A stretch of 64,000 bases of DNA, from assembly GCA_041484845.1 (NCBI GenBank), contig JBGPIK010000001.1, forward strand, positions 529-64,528, in the 5' to 3' direction. The stretch comes from Candidatus Binatia bacterium. GTDB lineage: Bacteria; Desulfobacterota; Binatia; UBA9968. Below the pieces are notes generated by a model that saw nothing but the letters and a program-made list of their open reading frames with translations, made no database searches and was not told the DNA's origin. Below are positions 41,647 through 59,575 of this stretch, one piece after another; position 1 is the stretch's first letter, and each line of letters opens with the position of its first letter. The position numbers were made by a program, and so were the translations under genes.

Positions 41647-41685
41647 GGAGGGGTGGGTGAGTGGTTGAAACCACCGGTCTTGAAA
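41647..41685 (+). repeat. attL: orphan copy of nucleotides 1-39 of tRNA-Ser(UGA), from acceptor 5' strand through the anticodon loop
   Basis: GGAGGGGTGGGTGAGTGGTTGAAACCACCGGTCTTGAAA is identical to 50294-50332. No T-arm or 3' acceptor strand follows. Confidence 0.9.
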
Positions 41686-41721
41686 TACCGTACCGGGGGA
41701 AAATCAATTTCTGAAAAAGGA

Positions 41722-41753
41722 CGGGGAGTTAGGGATAACTTCCCGTTTTTTTT
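41722..41753 (+). terminator. Rho-independent terminator just inside attL
   Basis: CGGGGAGTT-agggat-AACTTCCCG followed by T8. Confidence 0.7.
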
Positions 41754-41826
41754 ATTCTTTCTCGTTACCATCCTATTTTCCACATTCAATCACATTGTCC
41801 ACAAAAACACCCATTTTTGACGAAAA

Positions 41827-41854
41827 TTGTTCCCAGGGTGTTCCCAAGGATTCC
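41827..41854 (+). promoter_or_regulatory. Candidate integrase arm-type sites (tandem GTTCCCA), attL side
   Basis: TTGTTCCCAgggTGTTCCCAAGGATTCC matches 50222-50249 at 26 of 28 positions. Confidence 0.45.
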
Positions 41855-41872
41855 CCGGGGAAGGTGTTGGCT

Positions 41873-42493
41873 TCAGGAGGGGCCGCTAGGTTTCCACACA
41901 CCTTTAACACGATTCTGTTTTCTCTCCGGCTTCGTATTATGATGGTCCCATCGACACTGATCGCTACAAAATTTCTTCCTTTTGGTTCTGTAGACGCTAA
42001 GACTTTCGCAATGTGCACAGAAACCGATCCGTTCGATTTCACCACTAAGCAAACATTTCAACAGCGCATCATACATGACCTCGCTGAGTGTCAACTTCAA
42101 CGGCGTTCCGACAGCTAATACGAGCGAATTCTTTCCTAGAGTTAGTTTCTTCGTGAGATCGACGATCCGATAATGATCCAGGTCAGCGGTAGATGAGGCC
42201 AGGTTGACTTGAATGGGGCCGCGGTTAAACCGGTTCAGTGTTCGTTCCACATATTCGAGATCTTTGCACTTAAGAATGCCATCTAGGCAGCGCTTCAAAT
42301 TCCGTTTTAGTTCGCGTTCCGATCTGCGCGACGGATATTTAACTGCGGCCCTCGTGCCAGGTCGTTCAAGATTCATTTGCCTGACGACCTGCCCAAGCGT
42401 CGCCATAATATTACGCGTCTCATTACCATTCATGAAATTGCAAATAAATTGCCCCGCCGCTTGGTAACCGATTCCGCCAGATACACGGTTCAT
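41873..42493 (-). CDS. Unknown protein with a C-terminal CxxC...FCSxxC zinc ribbon, divergent from the HTH gene (candidate element regulator)
   Basis: ATG at 42493 with AGGAGG RBS (the ORF-track start at 42739 is probably too long). C-terminus CAHCESL..KKFCSDQCRWDHH. Confidence 0.6.
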   Translation of the reverse strand: MNRVSGGIGYQAAGQFICNFMNGNETRNIMATLGQVVRQMNLERPGTRAAVKYPSRRSERELKRNLKRCLDGILKCKDLEYVERTLNRFNRGPIQVNLASSTADLDHYRIVDLTKKLTLGKNSLVLAVGTPLKLTLSEVMYDALLKCLLSGEIERIGFCAHCESLSVYRTKRKKFCSDQCRWDHHNTKPERKQNRVKGVWKPSGPS

Positions 42494-42614
42494 AGTCAGC
42501 TCCCTCCTTTTTCGTGTACACGAATTATTTTGACAATACGCGTACCTTACTCTAAATTCAGTGTCAAGGCACATGGTGAGAAGAACAAGGAAACATTTAC
42601 CGGAGGTGAAAACG

Positions 42615-42830
42615 ATGGATCTCTTAACGACAGGCGAGGCCGCAAGGCTCTTGGATCTCTCGCCAGACTCAGTCAGACGGTTTGAGCGGGAGGGCTTATT
42701 GTCGGCGATCCGAGTAGGAAAGGGGCAGCGCCTATTCACTAAGTCCGAGATTGAGCGTCTTTCAGACCAAAGAAAAATCGATCATAGGACGGAAGCAGAG
42801 CGAGCAACGAGTGAGCGACCGAGGAAATGA
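42615..42830 (+). CDS. MerR/excisionase-type HTH protein
   Basis: MDLLTTGEAARLLDLSPDSVRRFEREGLL; RBS GGAGGTG. Confidence 0.7.
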   Translation: MDLLTTGEAARLLDLSPDSVRRFEREGLLSAIRVGKGQRLFTKSEIERLSDQRKIDHRTEAERATSERPRK

Positions 42831-43453
42831 TTGAGGCGCGGATGCAAGGTAAGCCCGACATTCGCGAAGTTATCAGCGAGCGCGTCGAGCTTCGCAAAGC
42901 TGGCAAGGAAAATCTCGGGCTTTGCCCGTTTCATGCCGACAAAACCCCATCGTTTAGTGTGAATGCAGACAAGGGTGTGTTTCATTGCTTTGGTTGCGGC
43001 GCCAGCGGCGACGTTTTCGATTTCATAATGCGCCTGGACGGTTTGACCTTTCCCGAGGCACGCAAGTCTCTCGGTATCGACACCATGGGCAAGCGTCCGG
43101 AGCCGAGGGTATCGCCAAATCGCAAGGCGGCATCGTTGCTCGCCGGCTGGCTCAATCAACAATACCTTTTGCTAGGCTCCCGTCTACGCGAGCTATCGCG
43201 TCAAATCGGCATAGCCGATCCCGAGCTTAAAGAGATCCTTGAGCGTGAGTGGGAAATTCTGTCTGACCTTCACGAGGATTTGCAGCAACCGGAATACGCG
43301 GAGGAACTTTTCCGGGCTAAAGACTCAATCGAGCGAATCACGGAATTTGCTCCAGCGGAACCGTTGCTGGAATTTCCCGAGTTCACGCCGGAATATCGGG
43401 CTTTCCTGCGGGCACACCTACCGACTAAGGAAAAAAATGAGGCCTCATGTTAA
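42827..43453 (+). CDS. CHC2 (DnaG-type) zinc-finger protein, primase-related
   Basis: CPFHADKTPSFSVNADKGVFHCFGCGASGDVFDFIM. No TOPRIM domain recognisable. Confidence 0.75.
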   Translation: MIEARMQGKPDIREVISERVELRKAGKENLGLCPFHADKTPSFSVNADKGVFHCFGCGASGDVFDFIMRLDGLTFPEARKSLGIDTMGKRPEPRVSPNRKAASLLAGWLNQQYLLLGSRLRELSRQIGIADPELKEILEREWEILSDLHEDLQQPEYAEELFRAKDSIERITEFAPAEPLLEFPEFTPEYRAFLRAHLPTKEKNEASC

Positions 43454-44637
43454 CCGCCCACGAGGTTGAACAGCATTTTGAGCGGATCAGCGGAGATCAT
43501 ACGAGCGGCGTTGAGCCTGCCGGCATAAAGGCAGGTTCTCCGATCACCGTAAGGATCAGCGACGTTCAGCGCGAAGAGGTGAGATGGCTTTGGAACAAAA
43601 GAATCCCACGCGGCAAGTTGACCTTGATCGAAGGCGATCCGGGGGTCGGTAAAAGTCAACTAACATTGGCAATATCCGCACCAATCACCAAGGGGTTACC
43701 CATCTTCGGCGACGACGGCGAACGTGAGCCAGAAAACATACTCATCATGACCGCCGAGGACGGCTTTGGCGATACTGTCAGGCCGCGCCTTGAGTCGATG
43801 GAAGCCGATCTTTCGCGGGTCGTCGCATTGACGGCGATGATTGGCGAGGATTTGAAAGAACGGGCCGTCACGCTGAGCGACCTGGCAACTATTGAGACTG
43901 CGATAATCGAGCACAAGCCGGGACTTGTCATCGTGGATCCCATCGTCGCATTTACGGGTCAAGCGGATACCTACCGGTCGAACGAAGTTCGAGGACTTTT
44001 GGCACCGCTGGCAGCGCTGGCAGCGAGGCACGGTTGCGCGGTTGTGGCGGTACGGCACCTAACCAAGGCAACCGGCGGGAAGACAATTTACCGGGGCCAA
44101 GGTAGTATCGACTTCTTCGCGGCGGTTCGGTCTTGCCTATTGGTCGGCAAAAGCCCAGACAACCCCAAGGAGAAGATCATTGTCCACCAGAAATCGAACC
44201 TTGGACCTGAAACACCATCATTAAAGTTTTCGATTGAAGAAGGCCGTTTTGAGTGGATTGGTGAAACGACTATCACCGCCGACCAGGTTCTAAACACCCC
44301 AACCGATAGCGACGAGCGGAGCGAGATTGACGAAGCGGTCGAGTTTTTAAGGGACACCTTAAAAGATGGCGCCGTGTCATCAAAGGACGTTTTCCGGCAA
44401 GCGAAGGCGGCCGGGGTTAGCGAGCGGACCCTTTGGCGGGCAAAGAAACGGCTTGGGGTTAAGGCCGTGAAATCCGGCTTTGACGGTTCTTGGAAATGGT
44501 CTCTAGCCGCCGAAGTCTGCCAAGACCCCCCCAAGACTGCCACATCTCTATGTATAGAAAACGCGGCAGACTTCGATGAAGTTGGCAGACTTCGACAAAC
44601 CGAGGCCGCCGAGTGGACGGAGATCAAAACGTCATGA
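43447..44637 (+). CDS. RepA/AAA_25-like replicative ATPase with a C-terminal winged-helix-like region
   Basis: Walker A GDPGVGKSQLTL, Walker B LVIVDPI, and VVAVRHLTK. Confidence 0.7.
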   Translation: MLTAHEVEQHFERISGDHTSGVEPAGIKAGSPITVRISDVQREEVRWLWNKRIPRGKLTLIEGDPGVGKSQLTLAISAPITKGLPIFGDDGEREPENILIMTAEDGFGDTVRPRLESMEADLSRVVALTAMIGEDLKERAVTLSDLATIETAIIEHKPGLVIVDPIVAFTGQADTYRSNEVRGLLAPLAALAARHGCAVVAVRHLTKATGGKTIYRGQGSIDFFAAVRSCLLVGKSPDNPKEKIIVHQKSNLGPETPSLKFSIEEGRFEWIGETTITADQVLNTPTDSDERSEIDEAVEFLRDTLKDGAVSSKDVFRQAKAAGVSERTLWRAKKRLGVKAVKSGFDGSWKWSLAAEVCQDPPKTATSLCIENAADFDEVGRLRQTEAAEWTEIKTS

Positions 44638-45005
44638 GGGCGGAGATCGAGATCAAGAAAACCGGCGACGGTCGTTTACTTGCCCGCCGAATGGACGGCA
44701 GGCCGCTAACAAGCGAGGACGTAGAGGCGGCAAGGCTACTAGGCAAGGCGCCGGCTGCAACAAGCACGGAGATGGCGCCGGCAGACCCAACCGAGGGCGA
44801 GATCATCGCCGTCTTGATTTGCGCGCACCTCTTAGAGGCCGAAATATGGTTCGCGCTGGATGAAAGTTTCAAGCCCGACCCGGGCGATGGGCGCGCCGTG
44901 TTCTATGCCAGCGAGCTTCCATTCCTGCGCACCAAAAGCCCGGACACCTTGCGGGAGATCCACAAGGTAAAACTGACATTCGGTGGCGGGAGGGTGAGGC
45001 AGTGA
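44634..45005 (+). CDS. Hypothetical protein
   Basis: ATGA overlap with the upstream gene; no recognisable motif. Confidence 0.45.
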   Translation: MRAEIEIKKTGDGRLLARRMDGRPLTSEDVEAARLLGKAPAATSTEMAPADPTEGEIIAVLICAHLLEAEIWFALDESFKPDPGDGRAVFYASELPFLRTKSPDTLREIHKVKLTFGGGRVRQ

Positions 45006-45271
45006 AGCTGCTCTCAGTGAAAGAAACCGCCGAAGCGCTAGGCGTCTCGCGCCAGACTGCGATGCGCATGATTGCCGAGGGGTTGCCAGCAATCTGCCTG
45101 CGATCGGGACGGCGAAAAAAGGTGTGGCGAGTTCGGGAAGCAGCCTTAGAAGGCTGGCTACTTCAGCATGAAAAGCAGGCCGCGCGAGCGCACGTTGGTG
45201 GACGAAATGGAAAAGTCGAAACTTTGAAAGGAGAGAATGCAAATGGAGCAAATGAAATTTTTAAACAATGA
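45002..45271 (+). CDS. Excisionase-family HTH DNA-binding protein
   Basis: LLSVKETAEALGVSRQTAMRMIAEGLPAI; GTGA overlap with the upstream gene. Confidence 0.65.
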   Translation: MKLLSVKETAEALGVSRQTAMRMIAEGLPAICLRSGRRKKVWRVREAALEGWLLQHEKQAARAHVGGRNGKVETLKGENANGANEIFKQ

Positions 45272-45599
45272 GACACGAAGGCGGCGCCTTCAGATTCGCG
45301 AGCTTGATGCGCGAATCGACTGGCTGAACGATTATATCGAAAGGTTTGACCCGAAAAGGCACCTTGAATACCGCGTGGCGCATGCACAGTCCTGCGAGCT
45401 TGTCGCTGCATGGACGATCGAGCTTGCCGAGAAACGGCAGTTAAAGCTGGACCTCGCCGAAGGCCGTTCGGTGAGCCAAGCCGAGATTGACGCCAAAACT
45501 CCGATCGTCCCAATACTCAAACTAATACTCAAAAGGTTTGCCGCACCGAGCGGCAGGGGCGTGCGGGAAAACGCAATGCAGTTCGGAAAGCGTCGATAA
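45237..45599 (+). CDS. Hypothetical protein
   Basis: ORF in operon context only. Confidence 0.4.
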   Translation: MQMEQMKFLNNETRRRRLQIRELDARIDWLNDYIERFDPKRHLEYRVAHAQSCELVAAWTIELAEKRQLKLDLAEGRSVSQAEIDAKTPIVPILKLILKRFAAPSGRGVRENAMQFGKRR

Positions 45600-45630
45600 A
45601 AAGCGACCCAAAAAAAAGGAGAAGAACATC

Positions 45631-46206
45631 ATGAAAACATTCCAAAAACCACCGGCGATAATTGAACTTGAGGCCAAACGCTTGAAGGTGCAGTTCGAGC
45701 TTAACGACGTTGAGGCCGAGATCAACGCGCGATGCAGCCACTTGGTGGACGACACAAAGCCGCGGCTATCGAAAGTCCAAGCTGAGGCGCTTGGGGTCGT
45801 GGACGGTGTAGATGTGCACCACGCTGGCGACGATGAAACGCGCGAGGAATTAAGCACGCTCTATCACCGCCGCACAGTATTGCAGGAAGCTCTCAAAGAG
45901 ATCGACAAGCGAATCCAGCCGCTGAAGAGTGAGCACGACAAAGCAGCCTGCCTTCAGGTTCGCCCGGAATACATTAAGATCGGCGCCAGGCTGTTGGATG
46001 CCATAAAGGCATTATGCGCCGCGTCCACGCAAGAGAAAGAGTTTTATGAAGAGCTGCGTGACGGCGGAATCGATAGTGTCGCGTCGTACCTGCCGCGTCT
46101 CATGTTTCATGGGGATTGGAAATGGGACGACCCGAACGGCGGGGTGATCCACTACTGGAAAAGTTTTGTCACGGAAAATTATCCCGAACTCAAAGCGCAA
46201 GGATGA
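45631..46206 (+). CDS. Hypothetical protein
   Basis: ATG at 45631 with AAGGAGAAG RBS. The ORF-track start at 45538 is probably too long. Confidence 0.5.
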   Translation: MKTFQKPPAIIELEAKRLKVQFELNDVEAEINARCSHLVDDTKPRLSKVQAEALGVVDGVDVHHAGDDETREELSTLYHRRTVLQEALKEIDKRIQPLKSEHDKAACLQVRPEYIKIGARLLDAIKALCAASTQEKEFYEELRDGGIDSVASYLPRLMFHGDWKWDDPNGGVIHYWKSFVTENYPELKAQG

Positions 46207-46218
46207 TGAGTGAATAGC

Positions 46219-46386
46219 ATGTCCATCCTTCGCAAGATGATTCTATCCATCAGCGTGAACGATGCTGTCTTTGTCCTCGCGTCCGCGGCTTTGGGCTATG
46301 GGCTTTGGTGTATACACGAGGCAATGGCGTACATCGTGATGGGTTCGCTTTTCTTACTGCTTGCGACGTGGGGGAGGCTCAAATGA
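46219..46386 (+). CDS. Small (55-aa) two-TM membrane protein, not in the ORF track
   Basis: MSILRKMILSISVNDAVFVLASAALGYGLWCIHEAMAYIVMGSLFLLLATWGRLK. Confidence 0.35.
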   Translation: MSILRKMILSISVNDAVFVLASAALGYGLWCIHEAMAYIVMGSLFLLLATWGRLK

Positions 46387-46629
46387 CGGACGCACCCAAA
46401 AAAAAAGATCGCGAATCGCACCTTCGGGAAAAACGGCGGCGCAAACAAGACCGCCGTGAGCGACGACGAGAGCGAGCAGGCCGTGAAGGAGCACCACCCC
46501 CGGGGGGTGGCGGCCAAAAAGTCGACGGGGTTTTCCCTGTAGACCGTTTCCCCCAGGAAGCGTGCAACATCGCAAAAATCAACTTACCGGGGAAAATTCA
46601 ATTGAGATTCCGGGAAAAGGAGCGACGAA

Positions 46630-46950
46630 ATGAACCAAAAGGCTGGAACGGCGGACGCAAAACGTCCAGATCCACCGGAGCACTTAAGCAAACAAATGAA
46701 GGAGTTTTGGACTGGCGTGTTCGAGCGTAAAAACCTACAGCCGCATGAGGCGATCATCTTTTTGAAAGCGTGTGAGGCTCACGACAGAGGCGAGCAGGCG
46801 CGCCAGACTCTCGATAGGGAAGGTTGCACCTACGAGGATCGGTTCAAACAGCCGCATAGCCGGCCGGAAGTCGCCATTGAGCGAGACAGCCGGGCGGCAT
46901 TCGCTAAACTGCTCAGTCAAATTAACTTGCACACCCCCGTGGCTTGGTGA
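46630..46950 (+). CDS. Phage terminase small subunit, P27 family
   Basis: PPEHLSKQMKEFWTGVF..EAIIFLKACEAHDRGEQARQTL..GCTYEDRFKQPHSRPEVAIERDSRAAFAKLLSQINL follows the P27-family pattern; RBS AAAGGAG. Confidence 0.65.
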   Translation: MNQKAGTADAKRPDPPEHLSKQMKEFWTGVFERKNLQPHEAIIFLKACEAHDRGEQARQTLDREGCTYEDRFKQPHSRPEVAIERDSRAAFAKLLSQINLHTPVAW

Positions 46951-47081
46951 CTTCCGGTTATGCAACCTCAGCCCCCGTGGCCGAAGTGTCTCACCCACAC
47001 ACGCGCGGGCGACGGTACAACCGGACGAAGAGGGCGAACGATGGGAGCAGAGGAAACCAACACACCCAGGCAACGGACAAA

Positions 47082-47291
47082 ATGTCCACTGCCACCGCCG
47101 AGACCCTAGCGGCGCAGCACCACGTAACCGAGCGCACGATACGGCGCGACGGCAAGCGCAACCTGACACCGTTCAGGAGCGCCGCGAAGTTCTTGTGTGA
47201 GTTGGACAGTGGAACGGTTGCGGCCGCCAAAGGAGCATTGAGAGATGACATTGCCGTGGCGATAAGGACGCACAAGCCATGGAAGGAATGA
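47082..47291 (+). CDS. Possible small HTH protein
   Basis: MSTATAETLAAQHHVTERTIRRDGKR is HTH-like. Weak call. Confidence 0.3.
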   Translation: MSTATAETLAAQHHVTERTIRRDGKRNLTPFRSAAKFLCELDSGTVAAAKGALRDDIAVAIRTHKPWKE

Positions 47292-47355
47292 TTTGCCGAA
47301 GCTATTGGGGCAACCCTACCTAAACAACTCGTCTCAGCCGTGGCCGTGAAGGATA

Positions 47356-47940
47356 CTAGAATTTTGGGGCAGCCTGCCCCGTGCGTGAATAGTAGCGGTC
47401 TGACAGCTCCCTGTCGGTGAGGATTACTTCGATGCCACCTTTAAAATTCTTTTTCAAGTTCAAAAGGGTTTGATCATCAAACCACTTCGCTTCGGAATAG
47501 CCATTGGTTATCGGTGCCCCATACTTGTCGGCTGTGGTTTTAATCATTCGCTCCCAATAATTCACATTGGACTCTTTATAGGTGATATGGATTTGAACGA
47601 GGCGCTGATCCACGAAAAATATCTTGAGTTCACTAATATCCCCAGACGGCAATCCGATAAACCCTTGGCCACCAAACTTATCCGGCTGGGATGGAGTCCA
47701 GTTTTTCGAACTGCGAAAAGAAGAATCTGGTTCTTTCAGCGTCAGGCCAGCGGGCGACCGATCAATCTTAGCCTTGCTCTTGCCTGGTTCATCTGTAGAA
47801 TTCTGTTGATTTGTCGGTGACGGCTCTCGACCCGTGCCTTGGGCCTCAAAGTGGGTCACGCCCTTTTCGTCCGTCCATTGTTTGACTTGCGCAAGCGCAA
47901 GGGTCGGGATCAATAGAAATATCGCTATGAGGAGTTTCAT
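47356..47940 (-). CDS. Secreted protein with a DUF4124-like N-terminus
   Basis: Signal peptide MKLLIAIFLLIPTLALA followed by QVKQWTDEKGVTHFEAQG. Confidence 0.55.
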   Translation of the reverse strand: MKLLIAIFLLIPTLALAQVKQWTDEKGVTHFEAQGTGREPSPTNQQNSTDEPGKSKAKIDRSPAGLTLKEPDSSFRSSKNWTPSQPDKFGGQGFIGLPSGDISELKIFFVDQRLVQIHITYKESNVNYWERMIKTTADKYGAPITNGYSEAKWFDDQTLLNLKKNFKGGIEVILTDRELSDRYYSRTGQAAPKF

Positions 47941-48231
47941 GTCGGCATTACCCCACCGCGCCTCGATTTACATCTCTCCGGCGCGGGTTGTCAACCATGT
48001 GCGAAGTTTTCGGGCTTCGGGCTTGGGGCGCATCAAATCTTGAGAAGTCCCTCTTTTGCAGACCCGTCCGCATCATCAGGTTCAAAGCCGCGAAATTGGA
48101 AATGAGTTTTCCCGAGGCAGAAAATTCAAGAGTGGGCCACATTGACACGGCCAACCGTTTGGCGAGCTTAAAATGCAAACCGGCAATCGACTATCCTTGA
48201 TTTATTTGGTAGCGATTGTTACAAGGGGAGT

Positions 48232-48429
48232 ATGTCACCTAAGCAAATCAGAAAATTGAGGGGAGCGCTTGGACTAACGCAGCGAGAATTAGCCGAGAGA
48301 ATAGCGGGGCATCGCGTGAGCGTTGCCAGGTGGGAAACCGGAGCGAGTAGGCCGACCGGAGCGTATCTCAAGCTGTTGGAGGTGTTAGCGGAGCAGCTAG
48401 GGGCGAAGGCGAAAAAAAGACGGGGGTGA
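48232..48429 (+). CDS. XRE-family HTH protein
   Basis: IRKLRGALGLTQRELAERIAGHRVSVARWETGASRP. Confidence 0.75.
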   Translation: MSPKQIRKLRGALGLTQRELAERIAGHRVSVARWETGASRPTGAYLKLLEVLAEQLGAKAKKRRG

Positions 48430-48567
48430 AAGTTCTATGGCCGACATTACAATCACTCACACCTGCACTCCTTATTGTAAGCCCGAACTTGGAGAGCCTA
48501 GAAGCCGCCTCTCCCCGTCGCGGTATTTTTTCGGCACAATAGGGTCGACAGCCCAAAGACAAACAAC

Positions 48568-48972
48568 ATGAGACCCTCAATCCTGATCCTATGCGCCGTC
48601 CTGCTCGTGAGCACGGCAATGTATTTTTGGCCCAAGAATACCGACGACACCCCGGAATTCAGGCAGGCGATATTTAAAGAGCTACAGGCAAGCAAGGATG
48701 TCTATACCGCCGCCTGGCAGGTCCATCAGATTGCAGACATCGCGAAGGAATTTGACCGGGATATGTGGCTTAATTACAAGCTGGACGAATGCAAAAAGGA
48801 AGTCGAGTTGCGTAGCTTATTCCTGCCCATCGAAAAGAAGGTGCGCGCCAAACATGGCGGTGATACTTTGCCGGATTGGTTCACTCAATCCCGCGACTGG
48901 CAAATAATCGACCGGCATTTAAAAGAGAGCAAGTTTGTTACGCCTGGCGATGGTTGCAAGCGGCTAGGGTAA
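48568..48972 (+). CDS. Signal-anchored protein, unknown function
   Basis: MRPSILILCAVLLVSTAMYFW hydrophobic N-terminus. Confidence 0.5.
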   Translation: MRPSILILCAVLLVSTAMYFWPKNTDDTPEFRQAIFKELQASKDVYTAAWQVHQIADIAKEFDRDMWLNYKLDECKKEVELRSLFLPIEKKVRAKHGGDTLPDWFTQSRDWQIIDRHLKESKFVTPGDGCKRLG

Positions 48973-49112
48973 AGGTGGAGAAATCACGAAGCCGAGCGCC
49001 GCAAACCGCTATCCAACAAAAAACGAGAACCGTGCAGGACGCATTAAAAGGCGTCTTGTGATGAAAGGAGGGCAAGAGATGAAAACACATTCCAGGGAAA
49101 GGAGGGCAAGGC

Positions 49113-50282
49113 ATGGAAGAAACCTTTGAGCGAGTAGGCGAGCATCTTTATAAACGGCAGTACCAGAGCGCCGGGGGCGAGTGGAAAACAATCTTCTACG
49201 GCATCTTCACGGACTGGAAGGGCAAGCGGCGCAAGGTGTCGCTCGGGGCCGATCTGAAGGCCGCGAAGGACGGCTTGAGCATCCGGCTTGCGGATAACGT
49301 CAAAAAGGTAGACTTCGACGAGGAAAAGCAACGGACTCGGGAACAGGGCATGACCGTTGCCAAGTGGTCGCAATGTTACCTTGAGCTAGAGCAGGTTAAG
49401 AAGAAACGAAACCTTCGCCGCGAGCGCGAGCTGATAGCCGCGATCAATCGCCGTTTAGGATCTATCTTGTTGACTGAGGTCAAGCGGGAACACCTGTTCA
49501 AGTACAAGAACGAGCGCCTTGAAGAGCATATTATTCGCTCCGGGAAACCGCGCGCCAAGACCATTTCCCTCGGCACAGTTGCCAACGAGATTTCTTGCCT
49601 GCGAACCATGCTGAATAAGGCGAGAGAGTGTGAGATCCAAGCCGCTACGCCGTCGTTTAAGGGGTTGATACAGAGAGCGCAGCGTGACCGGATCCTTGAC
49701 GCCGACGAAGAGGCCGCGATGTTAGAAGCTTATCCGGCATGGCTCAAGCGGTTGAGCATCGTAGCGAAAGAAACCTGTCTGTCTCAAGGCGACATCATCC
49801 GGTTGACCAAGGGCATGATTGATCGGCAGCGCCGGGAGATCGTACCGGCTGGCGGTAGAGTAAAAACGGGCGTTGAGCAGCGCGCGCCATTAACAGACCG
49901 CGTTCTCGAAGTCTTGGATGAGCTAGAGCGCGAAAAGCGCCGTGGAAAGATCGTTGCCAACGTCAACGGTTTGATATTCACCAGGGACGACGGCCGGGCG
50001 ATCAAAAAGGACATGATCACGCAGGCCGTGAGAGTAGCGCGCAAACGGGCCGGCGTTGCTGACTTTCGCTTCCACGATTACCGACACTGCGCCCAAACCG
50101 GATGGGCGAGAGAGGGCCGACCTGTTGAGGCCGCCATGCTCGCGGCAGGTCATAAAAGCGTCGCCATGCACCAACGATATGTGAATTTGAAGCCGGGCGA
50201 CGTTGCAAAAGCATTCGCAATTTGTTCCCATAGTGTTCCCAAGGATTCCGTCACGGACCGGGCGAGTAATGCAAGTAGTTGA
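49113..50282 (+). CDS. int: Tyrosine-type site-specific integrase
   Basis: Catalytic R (GDIIRL), HDYRH (H-x-x-R) and GHKSVAMHQRYVN (H..Y). The N-terminus resembles an arm-binding domain. The gene ends 11 nt before the tRNA. Confidence 0.9.
   Translation: MEETFERVGEHLYKRQYQSAGGEWKTIFYGIFTDWKGKRRKVSLGADLKAAKDGLSIRLADNVKKVDFDEEKQRTREQGMTVAKWSQCYLELEQVKKKRNLRRERELIAAINRRLGSILLTEVKREHLFKYKNERLEEHIIRSGKPRAKTISLGTVANEISCLRTMLNKARECEIQAATPSFKGLIQRAQRDRILDADEEAAMLEAYPAWLKRLSIVAKETCLSQGDIIRLTKGMIDRQRREIVPAGGRVKTGVEQRAPLTDRVLEVLDELEREKRRGKIVANVNGLIFTRDDGRAIKKDMITQAVRVARKRAGVADFRFHDYRHCAQTGWAREGRPVEAAMLAAGHKSVAMHQRYVNLKPGDVAKAFAICSHSVPKDSVTDRASNASS
50222..50249 (+). promoter_or_regulatory. Candidate integrase arm-type sites (tandem GTTCCCA), attR side, inside the int 3' end
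   Basis: TTGTTCCCAtagTGTTCCCAAGGATTCC. Confidence 0.45.
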
Positions 50283-50293
50283 TATTAAAAGCC

Positions 50294-50382
50294 GGAGGGG
50301 TGGGTGAGTGGTTGAAACCACCGGTCTTGAAAACCGGCGTCCACTTCGTGGACCGCGAGTTCGAATCTCGCCCCCTCCGCCA
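50294..50382 (+). tRNA. tRNA-Ser (anticodon UGA), class II long variable arm, encoded CCA
   Basis: Acceptor GGAGGGG/CCCCTCC, anticodon stem CCGGT/ACCGG with loop CTTGAAA, T-arm GCGAG-TTCGAAT-CTCGC. The first 39 nt are the attR repeat. Confidence 0.92.
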
Positions 50383-50719
50383 AATTTATCAATAATAACA
50401 GGCAAATCACATCACGGGGTTATTGAGAGCTGTTAGAAGTTATGAGCAACCTTCGGAGCCACGGAGGGTGGCCGGCAACAAGGTGTTTTTCTCACCGTCT
50501 TTCAAGGTAGGCTCTCGGGTGTGCGCATTGGGTAATCTCCCTTCGAAGGAAAGCTCTGATACCGGGTATACGATCCCATTTTTCTCCGCCATTTCGTTCT
50601 TGTGTAGCCGTGCGAGATTAAGCACCCTGTGCTCAAAACGAACGGTTGCAAGTCTTGCCTATGAAGAGTAGTTTGCAACGGTCCTGTTAGCGAAACTCGC
50701 CTATCTGGAGGTTTGACCT

Positions 50720-51742
50720 ATGGCCAAAGCAACGACAATCCGAACTCGGCGATCGAAGCCAGAAGTGGAAAAGGAATTCGTTAAAATCGTGGATGAAGTC
50801 GCAGAACGAAAAGAAAGCAGTGACTCCAAGGCCGAGGAGCTTGCCAGGCTGCGCCAAGCAGAGATAGACCAAGCAGTCGAGGGGATTTCCGTAGAGGGGG
50901 TTGTTCAAAAGGTATCCAACCTGGGCCTGGAGATTTCCAAGGCTCTTTCGGAGATTTCAGGAAAACTTGTTGCCGAAGTGGAACGATTGACCTCCATCCG
51001 CGAGGCGGTCGCCCTACAAACCAAGGAAATAGAGCGGCTTCACAAGATTGATATTGCGGCCACGGCCATCGATCATCTCGTCCAGGATTACGAATCGCAG
51101 AAGCAGAAGCTAGAAGCGGAGATATCGGCTCAACGCGAGGCATGGTCCACAGAAGAACAGCAGCGCGGCCGGGAGGACAAGGAGTACGAGGACAATCTCA
51201 AAAAACAGCGCCAGCGCGAGGTAGAAGATTACGAATACAAGAAGGCCTTAGAACGCAAGAAGGCCCAGGACAAATACGAAGAAGAAATGCGCCTCCTCGA
51301 AAAGAAGAACAAGGAGAAGCAGGAAGAACTCGAGAAGAGCTGGAAGCAGCGCGAAACGGCTCTCAGAGAAAAAGAGGAGGAGTGGCCGCGCCTCCGCAAG
51401 GAAATCGATGAATTCCCTGTCCGGCTCAAAACTGAGGTTGATCTGGCCGTTAGTAACGCGGTTAAATCAGCGGAGCAGAAGTTTGAGCAGGAAAGGATTT
51501 TGCTCAAGAAGGATGGCGAATCGGAAAGGCGTCTCGCCGAACTTCAGATTAAAGCGCTGCAGGACACGGTAGCACGGCAGTCAGCGGAAATCGAAAAAAT
51601 CCAGGTTCAGGTTGAAGAAGCCAAGCGTCAGGTTCAGGACATCGCAGTAAAAGCCATCGAAGGAGCATCTGGAGCGCAGGCCCTAAGCCATATTAACAAG
51701 ATCGCCATGGAGCAGGCGAAGCCTCGCGCACCACAAAGCTAG
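50720..51742 (+). CDS. Glu/Lys-rich coiled-coil protein, unknown function
   Basis: 340-aa ORF with RBS GGAGG and heptad-rich composition. Confidence 0.6.
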   Translation: MAKATTIRTRRSKPEVEKEFVKIVDEVAERKESSDSKAEELARLRQAEIDQAVEGISVEGVVQKVSNLGLEISKALSEISGKLVAEVERLTSIREAVALQTKEIERLHKIDIAATAIDHLVQDYESQKQKLEAEISAQREAWSTEEQQRGREDKEYEDNLKKQRQREVEDYEYKKALERKKAQDKYEEEMRLLEKKNKEKQEELEKSWKQRETALREKEEEWPRLRKEIDEFPVRLKTEVDLAVSNAVKSAEQKFEQERILLKKDGESERRLAELQIKALQDTVARQSAEIEKIQVQVEEAKRQVQDIAVKAIEGASGAQALSHINKIAMEQAKPRAPQS

Positions 51743-51771
51743 AGCCTGAGAGCACGCTATCAAGAGAACTA

Positions 51772-52030
51772 AGTGGCAAACTGCTTGCGTCGCTTAAGGA
51801 AGCGATTCCCAAAGTCTCCCGCGTAGCCTGCCTCTGGGATCCGGCCAATACATCAGCCCGAGTTGCATTAGCAGAAACGGAGGTCGCGGCGCGGTCGTTA
51901 GGGATACAGCTTCAATGTCTCGACGTATGGGCTCCGACTCCGGACATCGAGGGCGGGCAGGCGGCGTCGATGAGATGTGCAATGGCCCTTATTGTGATCG
52001 CGGATTTCCTCATTCAAAGGTGGTATCGTT
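51772..52030 (+). pseudogene. Internal fragment of a COG2984-type ABC substrate-binding protein
   Basis: LLASLKEAIPKVSRVACLWDPANTSARVALAETEVAARSLGIQLQCLDVWAPTPDIEGG..ALIVIADFL. There is no start codon (the frame opens after TAA at 51769) and similarity is lost after about 52030. Confidence 0.55.
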
Positions 52031-52196
52031 GCCAATACCTTTTTTCTTCCTTTTCCGAACCTTTTAAAATACCACAGTCCGCACTTGTATTTGCGCCACT
52101 CTGCTGCGCCGTTAGTTTGATCCAACCATCTCGGTTGATTGCTCACCTGCCTCCAAACCGCTCGGCTTCTTGACTTGAGCATGGTATGTTAAATTT

Positions 52197-52478
52197 GTGA
52201 TCTATGAGTGGGATCCGAGAAAAGCGAAGGATAATCTTCGTAAACATGGTGTCTCTTTCGAAGAGGCAGCAACAGTGTTCTTGGATCCCTTCGCTACAAC
52301 CTTTCCCGACCCCGATCACTCCCACGAAGAAGACCGAGAAATCACCATAGGGGCGACCACGAAACATCGGGTTGTATTTGTATCGCACGTTCCGAGAGCA
52401 GGTCGCACCCGGATCATCGGTGCACGTAGGACGACTCGAAAGGAGCGCAAACAGTATGAAGAAGGTACCTACCAATAA
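52197..52478 (+). CDS. brnT: BrnT-family (DUF497) toxin
   Basis: MIYEWDPRKAKDNLRKHGVSFEEAATVFLDP..R.RIIGARRTTRKERKQYE. Confidence 0.85.
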   Translation: MIYEWDPRKAKDNLRKHGVSFEEAATVFLDPFATTFPDPDHSHEEDREITIGATTKHRVVFVSHVPRAGRTRIIGARRTTRKERKQYEEGTYQ

Positions 52479-52743
52479 ACAGGTCGACGAGCTACGGCCA
52501 GAATATGACCTTTCAAAATTGAAGGGTGGGGTCCGTGGAAAATACTACGAGCGGGCTCGTGCCGGGACCAACCTGGTCTTGATTGAACCAGACTTGGCAA
52601 ACGTCTTCCCCGATACAGATTCAGTGAACCGAGCGTTGCGGTTGTTGGCAGACACGGCAGAGGCAGCCGCGGGTCACACAGAGCGTGCGCGCCACAGGCC
52701 GAACAAGCGGCATAAGCGGACTACTGGAAAACCAGCCGCTTAG
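52456..52743 (+). CDS. BrnA-like antitoxin
   Basis: ATG at 52456 overlaps brnT by 23 nt; PEYDLSKLKGGVRGKYY motif. Confidence 0.65.
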   Translation: MKKVPTNKQVDELRPEYDLSKLKGGVRGKYYERARAGTNLVLIEPDLANVFPDTDSVNRALRLLADTAEAAAGHTERARHRPNKRHKRTTGKPAA

Positions 52744-52785
52744 CCTTCGCGTTATGGCCGACGTGAGGGCATCTGATGCCAGCTC

Positions 52786-53061
52786 GTGATCGATCAGCGG
52801 ACGTGGTTCCCGGAAGTGGTTGAGGCACTGCGCGCGGGATGGAGAGACCAGATGTGCTGGGACGACTTGATCGCACTCTGCGATCGGCTGGACAACGGGC
52901 TTCAGCACATTCGCTACTCGCGCAACATGACGCCTGCCACGACATCGATGTTGTGCACCTGCTCTGGAGGTCCAACGGTCCAGGGCGCAGCGAGCGTTTC
53001 GGTGCGCGCAACCATCCTTGCTCTTGGATGGTTCGGGATCGCACCAGAAGCCGAAAGGTAA
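52786..53061 (+). CDS. Hypothetical protein (weak call in a GC-rich stretch with ORFs on both strands)
   Basis: ORF only. Confidence 0.3.
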   Translation: MIDQRTWFPEVVEALRAGWRDQMCWDDLIALCDRLDNGLQHIRYSRNMTPATTSMLCTCSGGPTVQGAASVSVRATILALGWFGIAPEAER

Positions 53062-53298
53062 GGACTCAGTTGGGTTGGGTGGCGACTCGGAACAAAGGCA
53101 CAATGCCACGAGCAATCTCAATTCGCCGTGGGCTACAAAGCCTAGCAGAGCCACGCACACAAACTTTTCGCCTTTAATGGTTCCGCCGTACCTTGTCGCA
53201 CAATTGCGATATCGCGGTTTCAGTTGTACAAGTACGAGTGATGCAAATCAGATGTAAGCCGCGCTTTCCGGCGTTAAGGATAGATCGGGGTAGGTCAG

Positions 53299-54708
53299 TT
53301 GATAGCGGGAGATAATCCAAAACTATCTTTGCACTTTCTCGGCGCGGCGGGTGGAGTGACCGGATCGAAGTTCCTTGTTGGTTATGGGCGGCAACAGTTC
53401 TTGCTGGACTGTGGCCTATTTCAGGGGCTTAAAGAACTTAGATTACGCAATTGGGCGCCACCGCCGCTCGATGTTAACCGCTTAAACGGAATCATTCTTA
53501 CCCATGCGCACATCGATCATTCGGGGTATCTGCCGCGTCTAGTGGCGCGCGGATTTCATGGGCCGGTCTACGCGACGGCGGCGAGTTGCGACCTCCTAAA
53601 GATTCTCCTGCTGGATGCTGCGCACTTGCAAGAAGAAGAAGCGCGCTATGCGAACAAGGAGGGCTATTCGAAACATAGTCCGGCATTGCCGCTTTATACG
53701 ATTGAAGACGCGGAGCGTGCCCTGCATTTGTTAAGACCGACAAAAATCGGCGAGGAAGTGCAGTTGGGCGCGGGAATCTGGGTTGGGTTTTCCCCTGTGG
53801 GTCATATTCTCGGCGCCGCCGCGGTGAAAGTCCGCTGCGATATGGGCGGGCGAACAAAACACCTGGTGGACTCGGGAGATCTCGGACGCTATGGTAGACC
53901 TATCCTGAAAGATCCCGAGCCCGTGAAAAAAGCCGACTGGCTTATGGTGGAGTCGACTTACGGTGACCGGCATCATCCGGAGCATCCCGAAGCCGAGCTC
54001 GCCAAGATCATCAATGAAGTGGCAGATCGGGCCGGATCATTGATTATTCCCTCATTTGCTGTTGGTCGCACACAAGAGCTGATCTACACGATCAAGAAGT
54101 TGGAAGATGAAAATAAAATACCCGCGCTGCCGGTCCATCTCGACAGTCCGATGGCGATTAACGCCACGGAGATTTACTCTAATCATCCGGAAGAGCATAG
54201 CCTGGATATTCAAGTGCTCCGGAAGGGAGCACGCGATCCGCTGCGCAGCCGGCACTTTTTCATTCACAGGACTCAGGAAGAATCGAAATCGCTGAACGCC
54301 ATCAACGGGCCATTTATATTATTGAGTTCGAGTGGTATGGCCACGGGTGGCCGGATTCTTCATCACCTGCGGCAACGATTGCCGGATCCGAAAAGCACGA
54401 TCTTGTTCGTCGGTTATCAAGCCGAGGGAACGCGGGGCCAGCATCTGCAGCAGGGGGCGCAGGAGGTAAAAATGCTTGGTCAGATGATTCCGGTACGAGC
54501 GAAGATCAGAACGATCGACGGATTTTCGGCGCATGCTGATCAGTCGGAGATCTTGCGCTGGTTGCAAGGATTCGAGCAACCGCCGCAAAAGACCTTTGTC
54601 ATTCATGGAGAGGCTCAGGCCGCAAACGCTCTAGCCCAAGCCATCCGAGATCGATTGCAATGGAACGTCGAAATACCGGCGTTTGGAGCCAAATGCGAAT
54701 TGAGCTAA
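53299..54708 (+). CDS. MBL-fold beta-CASP hydrolase (RNA-metabolising type)
   Basis: THAHIDHSGYLP (HxHxDH), beta-CASP region, C-terminal GFSAHAD and HGE motifs. Confidence 0.88.
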   Translation: MIAGDNPKLSLHFLGAAGGVTGSKFLVGYGRQQFLLDCGLFQGLKELRLRNWAPPPLDVNRLNGIILTHAHIDHSGYLPRLVARGFHGPVYATAASCDLLKILLLDAAHLQEEEARYANKEGYSKHSPALPLYTIEDAERALHLLRPTKIGEEVQLGAGIWVGFSPVGHILGAAAVKVRCDMGGRTKHLVDSGDLGRYGRPILKDPEPVKKADWLMVESTYGDRHHPEHPEAELAKIINEVADRAGSLIIPSFAVGRTQELIYTIKKLEDENKIPALPVHLDSPMAINATEIYSNHPEEHSLDIQVLRKGARDPLRSRHFFIHRTQEESKSLNAINGPFILLSSSGMATGGRILHHLRQRLPDPKSTILFVGYQAEGTRGQHLQQGAQEVKMLGQMIPVRAKIRTIDGFSAHADQSEILRWLQGFEQPPQKTFVIHGEAQAANALAQAIRDRLQWNVEIPAFGAKCELS

Positions 54709-55049
54709 GGACTGGATGGAGAACACGCCGCTCTGCGCCCTGACGATAACACTTCCGATGCCAGTCCTTGCGGAATGTCATCATTTGGGCTAGTGCTGTT
54801 AGCGATTTGCTTTAAGCCATTCGATTCGGGCAGTCAATCATTGCCATTGCCCAAGAAATAACATAGGCGCATAAGTTTTCAGCAAGCTGTTGCGTCCAGC
54901 CCTTTACATTATTTTTTGAGTTAGAGTAAGTTAGTGCAAAATTCGGCGTGAAGACACCGCCGAGCATTTAGGGCATATGGATTGCCGTACGACGCACCGT
55001 GGGATTAGCCTCCACGCCGATCAAGGCCAGAAAGCGCAGCTACTAAAGC

Positions 55050-56168
55050 ATGGCGATCATTAAGGTTGAAGGACTGCTCAAGACATTCAGTGACGTCAAA
55101 GCGTTGGACAATGTCAGCTTTGAGTTCGAGAAGGGTATTCTCTCTTTTTTAGGTCCCTCCGGATGCGGCAAGACCACCCTGCTTCGGTCGATCGCGGGCC
55201 TAGAAATTCCCGATGCCGGTTCTATCTCGATTGCGAATAAACTCCAGACCTCCATCGATCAAGGTGTTCTTGTCCCGCCCTATTCAAGAGAGATTGGTTT
55301 CGTCTTCCAGAATTACGCCCTCTGGCCGCACATGACGGTGTTCGCCAATGTTGCCTTCGCTCTCAAGCTGCGCAAAGTCGCCGCGGAAGAAATGAAGCGC
55401 CGAGTCTTGGCGTCTTTAGAACTGGTCGGATTGAAAGGCCGGGAAGATCGTTATCCATCGCAGCTGAGCGGCGGGCAACAGCAACGGGTTGCCTTGGCTC
55501 GCAGTATTGTTCTGGAACCTCAGTTGATTCTACTCGACGAACCGTTGAGCAATCTCGATGCCAAGCTCAGGGAGGAAATGCGGGTCGAGCTAAAAAAATT
55601 AATCAAGAAAGTCGGCATTAGCGCGCTGTACGTCACTCATGACCAGGAGGAGGCTTTTGTCATTTCGGACAAGGTGATCGTCATGAATGGCGGAAGGATT
55701 CTGCAGTACGACACGCCGGATGAGATTTATAACCACCCGGCGGACCCCTTCGTGGCAGCGTTCATCGGTCATTCGACTCTGGTGGAGGGGAAGATTACCA
55801 AAGTTGACGGGTGTGACTGTGTTGTGACGATACCGGAATTCGATAACGCGAGCTTGGTGTGTACCGCGCCGAAAGACGCTGTATCGGGCGAACCATGCAG
55901 TGTCGTCATTAAGAATGGCGATCTACGATTGAGCAGTGATAAATTCGCCGGCGCCACGGCGAACGTTTTGGAGGGGTCGATGACCAGCCGGGAATATCGT
56001 GGCGGTTTGACCGACCATAGAATCCAAGTCGGGTCGAAAGAGGTCGTGGTCACATCGCACAGGCTTTGCCCCATGATTAGCGTTAACGGCGATGACGGAA
56101 AAATCTTTCTCTGTATCGATCGATCGGCCATCAGTCTCATCCCCCATCGCGCGGGCGCGTATGCGTAG
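55050..56168 (+). CDS. ABC importer ATP-binding protein (PotA/FbpC-like, with a C-terminal TOBE-like domain)
   Basis: GPSGCGKTT, LSGGQQQRVALAR, LLDEPLSNLD. Confidence 0.92.
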   Translation: MAIIKVEGLLKTFSDVKALDNVSFEFEKGILSFLGPSGCGKTTLLRSIAGLEIPDAGSISIANKLQTSIDQGVLVPPYSREIGFVFQNYALWPHMTVFANVAFALKLRKVAAEEMKRRVLASLELVGLKGREDRYPSQLSGGQQQRVALARSIVLEPQLILLDEPLSNLDAKLREEMRVELKKLIKKVGISALYVTHDQEEAFVISDKVIVMNGGRILQYDTPDEIYNHPADPFVAAFIGHSTLVEGKITKVDGCDCVVTIPEFDNASLVCTAPKDAVSGEPCSVVIKNGDLRLSSDKFAGATANVLEGSMTSREYRGGLTDHRIQVGSKEVVVTSHRLCPMISVNGDDGKIFLCIDRSAISLIPHRAGAYA

Positions 56169-56265
56169 CCTGCTTCGTTTTAAGTTGCTACCTGAGTAAC
56201 CTCAGAGGAGAAGCGTCACGGCAAACTGGAAAGTCATTAGGCTCGCGTTTCGTCAGGGTGCCCTC

Positions 56266-57918: not shown

Positions 57919-57965
57919 AAGAGAAACTTTAATTTTTAATTTTACATTAAAGGGGGAAAAATAGC

Positions 57966-59105: not shown

Positions 59106-59484
59106 GGATCAGCGCGGCAAAAGCTTCCTAACGCACGATCGCAGGGTGGGGGCTTCGGAATGGTGCACAAGCTCTCCCGAAGTCATCCTCACCCTACGGT
59201 TCAGGCGAACGGCGACATTACTACTCGTGCAGTCTAATTCTTTTGTCGAGATTATTTCACGTTTGTTTTGGTCTAACTACGCCGTGACTTGTTCTGAATG
59301 GGCGCCAGCCAACCCGCAACAGTACATTAATCCACGCTGCAAGACGGGCATGGTTTACCGGCCTGTGGAAAATGCCGCTTTCCTGTGCTACGTTCCAAGC
59401 CGGCGAGCGGGCATTTGAATCCTTCGCCCGCAGCGACGCATAATTCAATCTTTTAGCTTGACGAGCTTACGCCACCCTTGTTAC

Positions 59485-59575
59485 GGAGAGATGGCCGAGT
59501 GGTCTAAGGCGCACGCCTGCTAAGCGTGTGTACCTCAAAAGGGTACCGAGGGTTCAAATCCCTCTCTCTCCGCCA
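59485..59575 (+). tRNA. tRNA-Ser (anticodon GCU), class II, encoded CCA
   Basis: Acceptor GGAGAGA/TCTCTCC, anticodon stem CACGC/GCGTG with loop CTGCTAA, T-arm GAGGG-TTCAAAT-CCCTC. Confidence 0.92.

Follow-up and report, generated by a model that had tools for sequence, protein, structure and literature searches.

A probable phage satellite with a lone P27-type small terminase integrated in a tRNA-Ser gene of a Binatota-like bacterium

We analyzed a 64-kb stretch of DNA (contig JBGPIK010000001.1, positions 529 to 64,528; hereafter the window, in whose own numbering positions are given) and focused on the element at 41647-50332. We interpret it, with moderate confidence, as an intact integrative element, 8,647 bp long and of the phage-satellite type, resembling phage-inducible chromosomal islands (PICIs) and integrative mobile elements encapsidated in virions (VEIMEs), in a Binatota-like bacterium. 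The initial annotation had already proposed a satellite. The discrete, intact element and its PICI-type architecture hold; the searches described below revealed neither a helper phage nor a circular junction or packaged form. Every life-cycle step that we propose beyond this anatomy is inferred.

The ends of the element are precisely defined. Perfect 39-bp direct repeats lie at 41647-41685 and 50294-50332 (8,647 bp from start to start), exactly where the initial annotation had placed them. The right copy, the attR core, spans nucleotides 1-39 of a tRNA-Ser(UGA) gene, through the anticodon loop (50294-50382, plus strand; anticodon tga; predicted with ARAGORN, Rfam tRNA 61.6 bits). The left copy, the attL core, is a displaced duplicate of the same 39 nucleotides on the plus strand. 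A tyrosine integrase (49113-50282, plus strand; Pfam Phage_integrase, phrog_1) ends with its stop codon 11 nt before the tRNA. Because the 39-mer pair is perfect, with one copy inside a tRNA and the integrase stop codon 11 nt upstream of it, the repeats are no chance match. Base composition fails to distinguish the element, with a GC content of 53.6% versus 51.9% for the window.

The flanking genes and the unoccupied sites of relatives agree with these ends. SerRS, encoded to the left of attL, is 75-82% identical to homologs from metagenome-assembled genomes (MAGs) labeled 'Candidatus Binatia' or 'Deltaproteobacteria bacterium', which identifies the host as a Binatota-like bacterium and bears out the initial view that the flanks are neither enterobacterial nor firmicute. 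All SerRS-related MAGs compared share the synteny of the left flank (o242-YraN-SerRS), and L005, L008, and L013 share that of the right flank (beta-CASP nuclease, ABC transporter). An empty attB, which the initial annotation had suggested looking for, is present in the related MAGs L010 and L040, where tRNA-Ser(tga) follows serS at a distance of about 100 nt with nothing in between. The element could in principle be one end of a larger prophage or of an integrative and conjugative element (ICE), and an extra 2.9 kb to the right of the tRNA, absent from L013 and encoding a PHROG-matching coiled-coil protein and a toxin homolog, would fit that idea. However, both flanks consist of host genes that are syntenic in relatives, the repeats bound the element exactly, empty sites exist, and no conjugation or virion genes were found around the element in the window. 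We therefore consider this explanation almost certainly wrong.

The gene content of the element follows the PICI logic that the initial annotation had recognized (integrase, helix-turn-helix (HTH) regulators or excisionase, replication module, lone small terminase, no virion genes). Set against a published definition of PICIs by five functional core components (PMC10085698), it carries four, if a replication module without a catalytic primase domain is counted, and it has none of the forbidden components. The integrase component is the protein described above. The regulation module (alpA/merR/stl type) is represented by genes at 42615-42830, 45002-45271, and 48232-48429 (XRE), and the small-terminase component by a Terminase_4 protein with a Pfam score above the gathering score, PHROG family matches, and fold matches. 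For the primase-replicase component an AAA_25 helicase is present, and its partner consists of a DnaG zinc-binding domain only. Searches with Pfam, PHROGs, NCBIfam, and tblastn with phage probes detected no large terminase (TerL), portal, capsid, tail, holin, endolysin, or head-tail connector gene in the element, in agreement with the initial statement that large terminase, portal, capsid, tail, and lysis genes are missing. All of the earlier gene calls were confirmed apart from 'primase-like', to which we return below. Gene content and size also fit the VEIME pattern of 5-17 kb with integrase, excisionase/AlpA, primase/helicase, in some cases a small terminase, and no capsid gene.

Could the element instead be a decayed prophage that has kept its integrase, regulators, replication genes, and terS? 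All of its recognizable genes do have phage homologs. Yet its genes are intact and closely spaced, their starts are coupled or overlapping, its att repeats are perfect, and fragments of structural or lysis genes are missing. The same small architecture appears again in two other elements, L107 and L111, and an actual remnant at the same tRNA core (L104) looks different, being 1.8 kb long with an integrase fragment only. We regard a prophage remnant as highly improbable.

The gene with the most direct bearing on packaging is terS, which encodes a lone small terminase subunit (TerS) of 106 aa (46630-46950, plus strand). It matches Pfam Terminase_4 (PF05119; the P27 family) with 28.0 bits (gathering score 24.7), as well as phrog_83 and phrog_1496, both annotated as 'terminase small subunit'. 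An AlphaFold (AF2) model built from 23 homologs reached a pLDDT of 88.5. When this model was searched against BFVD, the ten best matches all had E<1e-3 (from 9e-5) with query-normalized TM values of 0.63-0.73, and the named matches among the top thirty were almost all terminase small subunit, COG3747, or P27 proteins. In the PDB, the HK97 small terminase occupied the top three places, with weak E-values of 0.1-0.5. The protein retains the full-length TerS fold and all motifs common to a phage TerS, P0156. The TerS call of the initial annotation thus survives profile searches and is joined by a confident fold model. No TerL gene adjoins terS within the element (Pfam, PHROGs, tblastn).

We also considered a head-tail adaptor function for the Terminase_4 homolog, given the position of family members after the capsid gene in phages of the L076 type. 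This was rejected because the fold searches recovered small terminases but not a single adaptor, and because two phages show the canonical TerS-TerL order. In L066, a 40%-identical homolog is separated by 8 nt from the TerL-portal-ClpP (protease)-capsid series downstream of it, and in L073 a 49%-identical homolog lies directly 5' of TerL. The GC content of L066 and L073 is 64-66%, so these phages probably infect other hosts.

The same family recurs as a lone gene on other small elements. At least six integrase- or recombinase-bearing islands carry a TerS of this family with no TerL detected (L064, L065, L067/L068, L107/L108/L109, L110, and L111), and their integrase/recombinase and replication modules vary. 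The TerS proteins are 68% (L064), 67% (L067/L068), and about 51% (L065) identical to that of the window, and the GC content of L064, L067, and L107 is 52-53%, like that of the window. The element of L107/L108/L109 occupies the same tRNA core, with a left arm 85-88% identical to the window's. L107 also has the window's gene order: a minus-strand zinc-ribbon gene at the same position, a Prim-Pol-PriCT-AAA_25 fusion, an HTH_17 gene, and a Terminase_4 gene (31 bits). Its TerS is 32% identical to that of the window and has the same relative position. L111 is located in the chromosome of the cultured Mesorhizobium caraganae (GCA_964253735.2, CAXURK020000001.1, about 3.675-3.695 Mb), with the order integrase, HTH_17, HTH_36 protein, TerS. 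Terminal overlap, a sign of circular assembly, was absent from L064, L065, L067/68, L002, and L003.

Four further IMG/VR contigs of 8-14 kb carry the TerS family together with replication genes and have direct terminal repeats of 44-144 nt, from which we conclude that they are circular. L093 (8.06 kb; contig 8,186 nt) encodes an HK97-type capsid protein, an integrase, and AAA_25; L087 (9.5 kb; contig 9,625 nt) an HK97-type capsid protein, a serine recombinase, and a D5-type primase-helicase; L092 (10.3 kb; contig 10,464 nt) an S49 protease and a primase-like protein; and L086 (13.8 kb; contig 13,833 nt) AAA_25. No TerL, portal, or tail gene was found among the large open reading frames (ORFs) scanned in these four. 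The family members in IMG/VR were found with an alignment-based scan; a single-protein scan with the window TerS returned nothing.

The recurrence of a lone TerS with varied integrases and replication modules, on islands and circles too small for phages, carries the most weight here and would be expected of a gene under selection for packaging in foreign capsids. Such recurrence is hard to explain if the gene is a relic. Selection for a packaging function is further favored by the shared position of terS in the window and L107 despite the 32% identity of the two proteins.

Several observations weigh against a satellite. The TerS scores 31.8 bits against the NCBIfam equivalog TIGR01558, below its cut-off of 45.6 bits, which makes it a divergent member of the family, and a TerS-family sequence profile matched no solved TerS in the PDB, only spurious catenin hits. 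The closest relatives of the AAA_25 protein, in L002 and L003, belong to the same backbone without any TerS. In L008, a small island on the same integrase/att module carries cargo only, with no replication gene and no TerS. In one phage lineage (L070, L074, L076, L081, L088, and L090), a copy of the TerS family sits between capsid and tail genes, and from this non-canonical position family members may act other than in canonical packaging initiation. Signs of a helper or of packaging were also missing: the window holds no helper phage (tblastn with phage probes), a conserved left-arm 25-mer was not found in IMG/VR, the metagenome scan for core junctions gave no attP junction of this element, and none of 50,697 cultured-phage records matched the TerS in a tblastn search. 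Among the ORFs of unknown function no Pfam or PHROG match to a capsid-morphogenesis gene was seen, and no interference gene was recognized in the element. PICIs are described as islands of about 12-15 kb, with an att site that is never prophage-occupied and with helper-dependent induction, packaging, and interference (PMC6092414); at 8.6 kb, the element is below that typical size.

Many of these observations would also be expected of a phage-independent, self-replicating genomic island in which the Terminase_4 gene is a relic or a co-opted small DNA-binding regulator. The TerS-free backbones of L002 and L003, the cargo-only L008 island, the score below the NCBIfam trusted cut-off, the paralogs at non-packaging positions, and the lack of any helper or packaging sign in the IMG/VR, metagenome, and cultured-phage searches all fit this explanation. 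Such an island would move by an unrecognized route or not at all. Against it stand the lone TerS in at least six independent islands with differing integrase/recombinase and replication modules, its presence on the 8-14-kb circles, and the terS position kept in the window and L107 while the proteins diverged. Furthermore, no relaxase, coupling protein, or type IV secretion system (T4SS) gene was found among the element ORFs (Pfam, NCBIfam), although it may have an oriT. We judge a phage-independent island unlikely, but serious enough to be kept in mind.

If the element is a satellite, its TerS may act in more than one way. It could work in the manner of Rpp from Escherichia coli PICIs, forming mixed complexes with the helper TerS and retargeting them to a cos site on the element. 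For cos-type helpers, retargeting of the Rpp type is the established route (PMC6739421). The P27-type family and its linkage to HNH endonucleases in L076 and L088 (across their phage lineage, the second family copy often lies just past an HNH gene) indicate cos-type helpers and would suit such a mode, as would the two family paralogs within one phage lineage. The argument draws on gene context, however, and the window TerS has the full-length fold and all of the motifs noted above, so direct replacement of the helper TerS is equally plausible. We consider an Rpp-like TerS improbable. Within L076 (2126-13879), the second Terminase_4 gene lies between the major capsid and the tail tube/tape-measure genes, and a 'replication initiation'-type protein occupies the expected portal position. 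A separate TerL is encoded nearby in L076 and L081, and in L076 a TerS lies ahead of TerL.

Upstream of terS, a gap of 243 nt (46387-46629, plus strand) contains blocks that are conserved in alignments with L064 and L067. This gap is possibly the promoter of a packaging operon or a candidate pac/cos site. One of the lone-TerS islands, L065 (70% GC), encodes both a tyrosine integrase and a serine recombinase. Two ORFs past its terS lies a gene for a 146-aa protein (10043-10483) that matches phrog_233 'head scaffolding protein' (E=1e-11) and is a candidate CpmB-like capsid-remodeling factor.

The replication module consists of two overlapping genes. The first (42827-43453, plus strand) encodes a CHC2 zinc-binding-domain protein that matches Zn_ribbon_DnaG with 103 bits over residues 5-82 only. 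Its match to TIGR01391 (DnaG) is likewise limited to positions 9-86, and its PDB matches are primase zinc-binding domains only (N-termini of 1d0q and 2au3). In relatives with a CHC2-AAA_25 fusion, TOPRIM motifs (EGESD, or EGEKD...DND) are found between the two domains and are absent from the window's protein. With the CHC2 match confined to the DnaG zinc-binding domain and with TOPRIM and Prim-Pol both lacking, the element has no recognizable primase catalytic domain, which is unusual for this class of element. The earlier description 'primase-like' thus claims too much for a protein that has only the zinc-binding domain.

The second gene (43447-44637, plus strand), whose start overlaps the stop of the CHC2 gene, encodes a putative replicative helicase of the AAA_25 family (RecA fold, DnaB/RepA-like; 115 bits) with a C-terminal DNA-binding-like domain and matches to PHROG primase/helicase families. 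Exact look-ups of the window's AAA_25 and SerRS proteins returned no record. Among 717 AAA_25 homologs, the N-terminal primase modules are swapped. Within this family (P0003-P0120), the N-terminal module can be Prim-Pol+PriCT_1, TOPRIM, DnaB_N, CHC2, or none, and it is fused or encoded by a separate gene. Inside the 3' end of the helicase gene (44511-44595) are three exact copies of GGCAGACTTCG, two direct and one inverted, and these are the only exact copies in the window. They are candidate iterons and possibly a replication origin. The module is followed by an ORF of unknown function (44634-45005, plus strand; 123-130 aa) that is 60% identical over 57 aa to an ORF downstream of AAA_25 in L003.

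The tRNA-Ser core is a hotspot for integration, used by a single integrase/attP family. L008 contains the same 39-mer (with one mismatch) twice, 3.35 kb apart, and the small island between the two copies has an integrase that shares 49% identity with the window's and also abuts the tRNA. When metagenomes were scanned for copies of the 39-bp core that lack the remainder of the tRNA behind them, eight further junctions were recovered (including L100-L107), with at least five different left ends. Together with L008, this makes at least nine other small islands on the same core, and in this sample of about ten loci every occupant observed was a small island or a remnant. The 80-170 nt adjoining the core are 75-88% identical in most islands (L008, L101, L103-105, and L107), and this shared left arm, with multiple islands on one core, is the basis for assigning them to a single integrase/attP family. 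The remnant in L104 (529-2353) lies between two cores. In L105 (694-3468), a frameshifted integrase is followed by the core, after which comes the left end of another element, an arrangement that is tandem or attP-like.

Elements that target tRNA genes usually duplicate the 3' part of the tRNA. Here, the duplicated segment is the 5' half and the element lies upstream of the tRNA gene, so that the tRNA gets its 5' half, and presumably also its promoter, from the element rather than from the chromosome.

Both arms contain sequences that may serve integration. A strong hairpin of 18 pairs just inside attL (41714-41753, plus strand), flanked by an A-run and a T-run, is a terminator-like site and likely a bidirectional terminator; it is also present in the left arm of L107. 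Tandem TGTTCCC motifs form two direct 34-nt repeats that are 88% identical, one in the left arm (41821-41854, plus strand; P' arm) and one within the 3' end of the integrase gene (50216-50249, plus strand; P arm). The exact sequence TTGTTCCCA occurs in the window only in these two repeats, and the tandem motif is kept in L107. By their placement, the two TGTTCCC pairs would probably flank the core in the circular form, as expected of integrase arm-type sites. Just 5' of the integrase gene, the 22-nt sequence GAAAGGAGGGCAAGAGATGAAA, which contains a ribosome-binding site (RBS) and an ATG, is duplicated with the copies 34 nt apart (49063-49118), and the second copy provides the integrase start codon.

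Assembly breaks were seen around these elements. An independent JGI contig (L001; metagenome 3300052992), with a 100% identical integrase end, begins 311 nt upstream of the integrase gene. L107, L108, and L109 all stop about 300 nt past terS, and L006 stops exactly on the last base of the 39-bp core. These breaks suggest population-level variation in cargo and site occupancy.

On the other side of the tRNA, about 2.9 kb between its 3' end and beta-CASP (50383-53298) have no counterpart in L013, where beta-CASP directly follows tRNA-Ser. Its products include a coiled-coil protein of 340 aa (phrog_29668, E=1e-15) and a protein of 93 aa that matches the solved 'toxin' 7vd7 (E=4.5e-14). The segment, which has no integrase, may represent another small insertion, located 3' of this tRNA. 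In L010 (7229-7585) and L040 (2783-3133), tRNA-Ser(tga), tRNA-Ser(gct), and tRNA-Arg(acg) form an uninterrupted series. In the window (50294-59575), two tRNA-Ser genes are separated by 9.1 kb with the beta-CASP and ABC transporter genes; the corresponding distance in L005 is 6.7 kb.

The regulatory genes are arranged divergently. A minus-strand gene (41873-42493; start refined to the ATG at 42493, with an AAGGAGG RBS) encodes a 206-aa protein with a C-terminal CxxC...CxxC zinc ribbon, a candidate regulator transcribed away from the main operon. It has no family match in Pfam, PHROGs, NCBIfam, or PADLOC, is weakly similar to the proteins at the same position in L107 (E=1e-3) and L101 (E=4e-9), and gave a single-sequence AlphaFold model with a pLDDT of 32.7. 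A faint zf-CGNR flag on its positional equivalent in L003 raised the possibility of a CGNR-type protein, which was rejected because the two proteins share no similarity. The divergent control region of 121 nt contains a sigma-70-like promoter (42530-42558, plus strand; TTGACA-17-TAAATT, 10/12), the top-scoring site in the region. The first gene of the rightward operon (42615-42830, plus strand) encodes an AlpA/excisionase-type regulator (Pfam MerR_1 and HTH_17) that matches phrog_66 'excisionase and transcriptional regulator'. A second HTH_17 protein (45002-45271, plus strand; phrog_66 and phrog_12527 excisionase) is a candidate excisionase or recombination directionality factor and is 49% identical to the product of the same-position gene of L107.

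The remaining genes lie between the second HTH_17 gene and the integrase. Three plus-strand ORFs at 45237-46386 encode proteins of unknown function with 120 aa, 191 aa (ATG at 45631), and 58 aa, the last a small membrane protein. Apart from a match of the 58-aa ORF to phrog_502 'membrane protein', they have no Pfam, PHROG, or PADLOC match. The cargo or accessory block (47356-48972) comprises a DUF4124 secreted protein (minus strand), an XRE HTH protein (48232-48429, plus strand), and a 134-aa membrane-like ORF (plus strand), as annotated with Pfam. An XRE homolog with 57% identity is likewise located just 5' of the integrase in L067/L068. PADLOC detected no defense system in the cargo, and no protease or HNH gene was found in the element with Pfam, PHROGs, or tblastn.

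We compared the element with known mobile systems. It shares with PICIs that encode their own TerS (SaPI1/SaPIbov1 type; PMC10085698, PMC6092414) a terminal integrase, a divergent regulatory region with MerR/AlpA-type HTH proteins, a replication module in which iterons form a candidate origin, a lone terS, the lack of virion and lysis genes, and a dedicated att site used by small islands. This likeness is one of architecture, with no sequence homology to PICI genes seen. The element differs in being 8.6 kb rather than 12-15 kb, in having the integrase at the end opposite the switch in its integrated form, and in encoding, as its replication protein, an AAA_25 helicase with a zinc-binding domain and no catalytic primase. 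Its TerS is of the P27/Terminase_4 type, it has no recognizable capsid-morphogenesis gene, and its host phylum is Binatota-like. Capsid-morphogenesis genes are optional in PICIs and occur mainly in proteobacterial ones (PMC10085698).

VEIMEs (PMC9618062) are similar in gene content: they range from <5 to 16.8 kb, carry a tyrosine integrase, excisionase/AlpA, primase/helicase, and TerS homologs, lack capsid genes, and occur in non-model phyla. Their packaging as concatemers into full-size heads is the best-fitting mechanism for the element. VEIMEs were defined by sequencing concatemers from virions, whereas the element is known here from its genes alone. They are also marine and from different host phyla, while the MAG relatives of the element's host are of soil/groundwater type. 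PICMIs (minimalist chromosomal islands inducible by phages; PMC10803314) are minimalist satellites packaged as concatemers that share with the element an integrase, an AlpA-type regulator, a primase/replication gene, and the lack of capsid remodeling. PICMIs are, however, restricted to Vibrionaceae, inserted next to fis, and not defined by a TerS, whereas the element has a TerS and is integrated in a tRNA gene.

Capsid-forming PICIs (cfPICIs) and the small circular 'mini' genomes with HK97 capsids (PMC10085698; bioRxiv 10.1101/2025.06.18.659913) are linked to the element through the TerS family, which is found on the 8-10-kb circles L093 and L087. Both circles also encode a capsid protein, a recombinase, and a replication protein of the AAA_25 or D5 type; the element itself lacks capsid, portal, protease, TerL, HNH, and head-tail adaptor genes. 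L093, L087, L092, and L086 all resemble the 'mini' HK97 genomes, in which an encapsulin-enriched clade was reported without terminases (bioRxiv 10.1101/2025.06.18.659913). P4-like satellites are also tRNA-integrated and about 10 kb long, with an integrase, an AlpA/Vis-type regulator, a primase-helicase, and dependence on a helper for virion proteins. The element differs from them in having no psu/delta/sid, epsilon, or alpha-type primase gene (PHROG, Pfam, NCBIfam), and P4 has a cos site and no TerS. ICEs and integrative and mobilizable elements differ by the relaxase, coupling protein, and T4SS genes that the element lacks.

Returning to the satellite interpretation, we propose a life cycle in five steps. 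A helper phage would first trigger the divergent switch formed by the zinc-ribbon and MerR genes, in analogy to control by Stl or AlpA. The integrase and the HTH_17 directionality factor would then excise the element by recombination at the core, with a crossover near the anticodon loop and with the TGTTCCC tandem motifs of both arms probably acting as arm sites for the integrase. Next, the AAA_25 helicase and its CHC2 partner would fire the origin, possibly the three GGCAGACTTCG repeats. Since the element has no catalytic primase domain, priming would come from the host or the helper. In the fourth step, the P27-type TerS would bind a site specific to the element, which may lie in the conserved gap upstream of terS, and then recruit the helper TerL and, in the case of an HK97-type cos helper, also HNH. 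Finally, concatemers of the element would probably be packaged into helper virions. Given that no capsid-remodeling gene is recognizable, multi-copy packaging in full-size heads, as in VEIMEs, is the default expectation.

The concept of a phage satellite is not new, and similar environmental satellites (VEIMEs and PICMIs) have already been published. VEIMEs with the same gene logic are known in Alphaproteobacteria, Cyanobacteria, and Verrucomicrobia (PMC9618062), and satellites of this logic in Vibrionaceae (PMC10803314); published accounts also mention satellites in Streptomyces and Mycobacteriaceae. The claim of the initial annotation that the element extends the range of satellites is therefore correct in that a new uncultured phylum is added, but the extension is merely incremental, because VEIMEs and other satellites were already known outside enterobacteria and Firmicutes. 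A full-text literature search for Binatota and prophage together returned only a plant-microbiome study. We tentatively suggest that this is the first recognized satellite lineage of Binatota, combining a hijack of HK97/HNH packaging by a lone P27-type TerS (instead of a carried cos site or an Rpp protein), replication by a helicase and a zinc-finger partner without a primase catalytic domain, and integration into the 5' half of tRNA-Ser(UGA), a combination that we hold as somewhat less than an even prospect.

Our analysis brings together small elements that are united by one TerS family, among them the islands of the serS/tRNA-Ser hotspot, the 8-14-kb circular contigs, and the Mesorhizobium caraganae island. 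As the last of these lies in a cultured bacterium, the packaging hypothesis is open to laboratory testing. If the element is a working satellite, the interplay of phage, satellite, and host would reach Binatota, a phylum that is represented by MAGs alone and about whose phages next to nothing is known.

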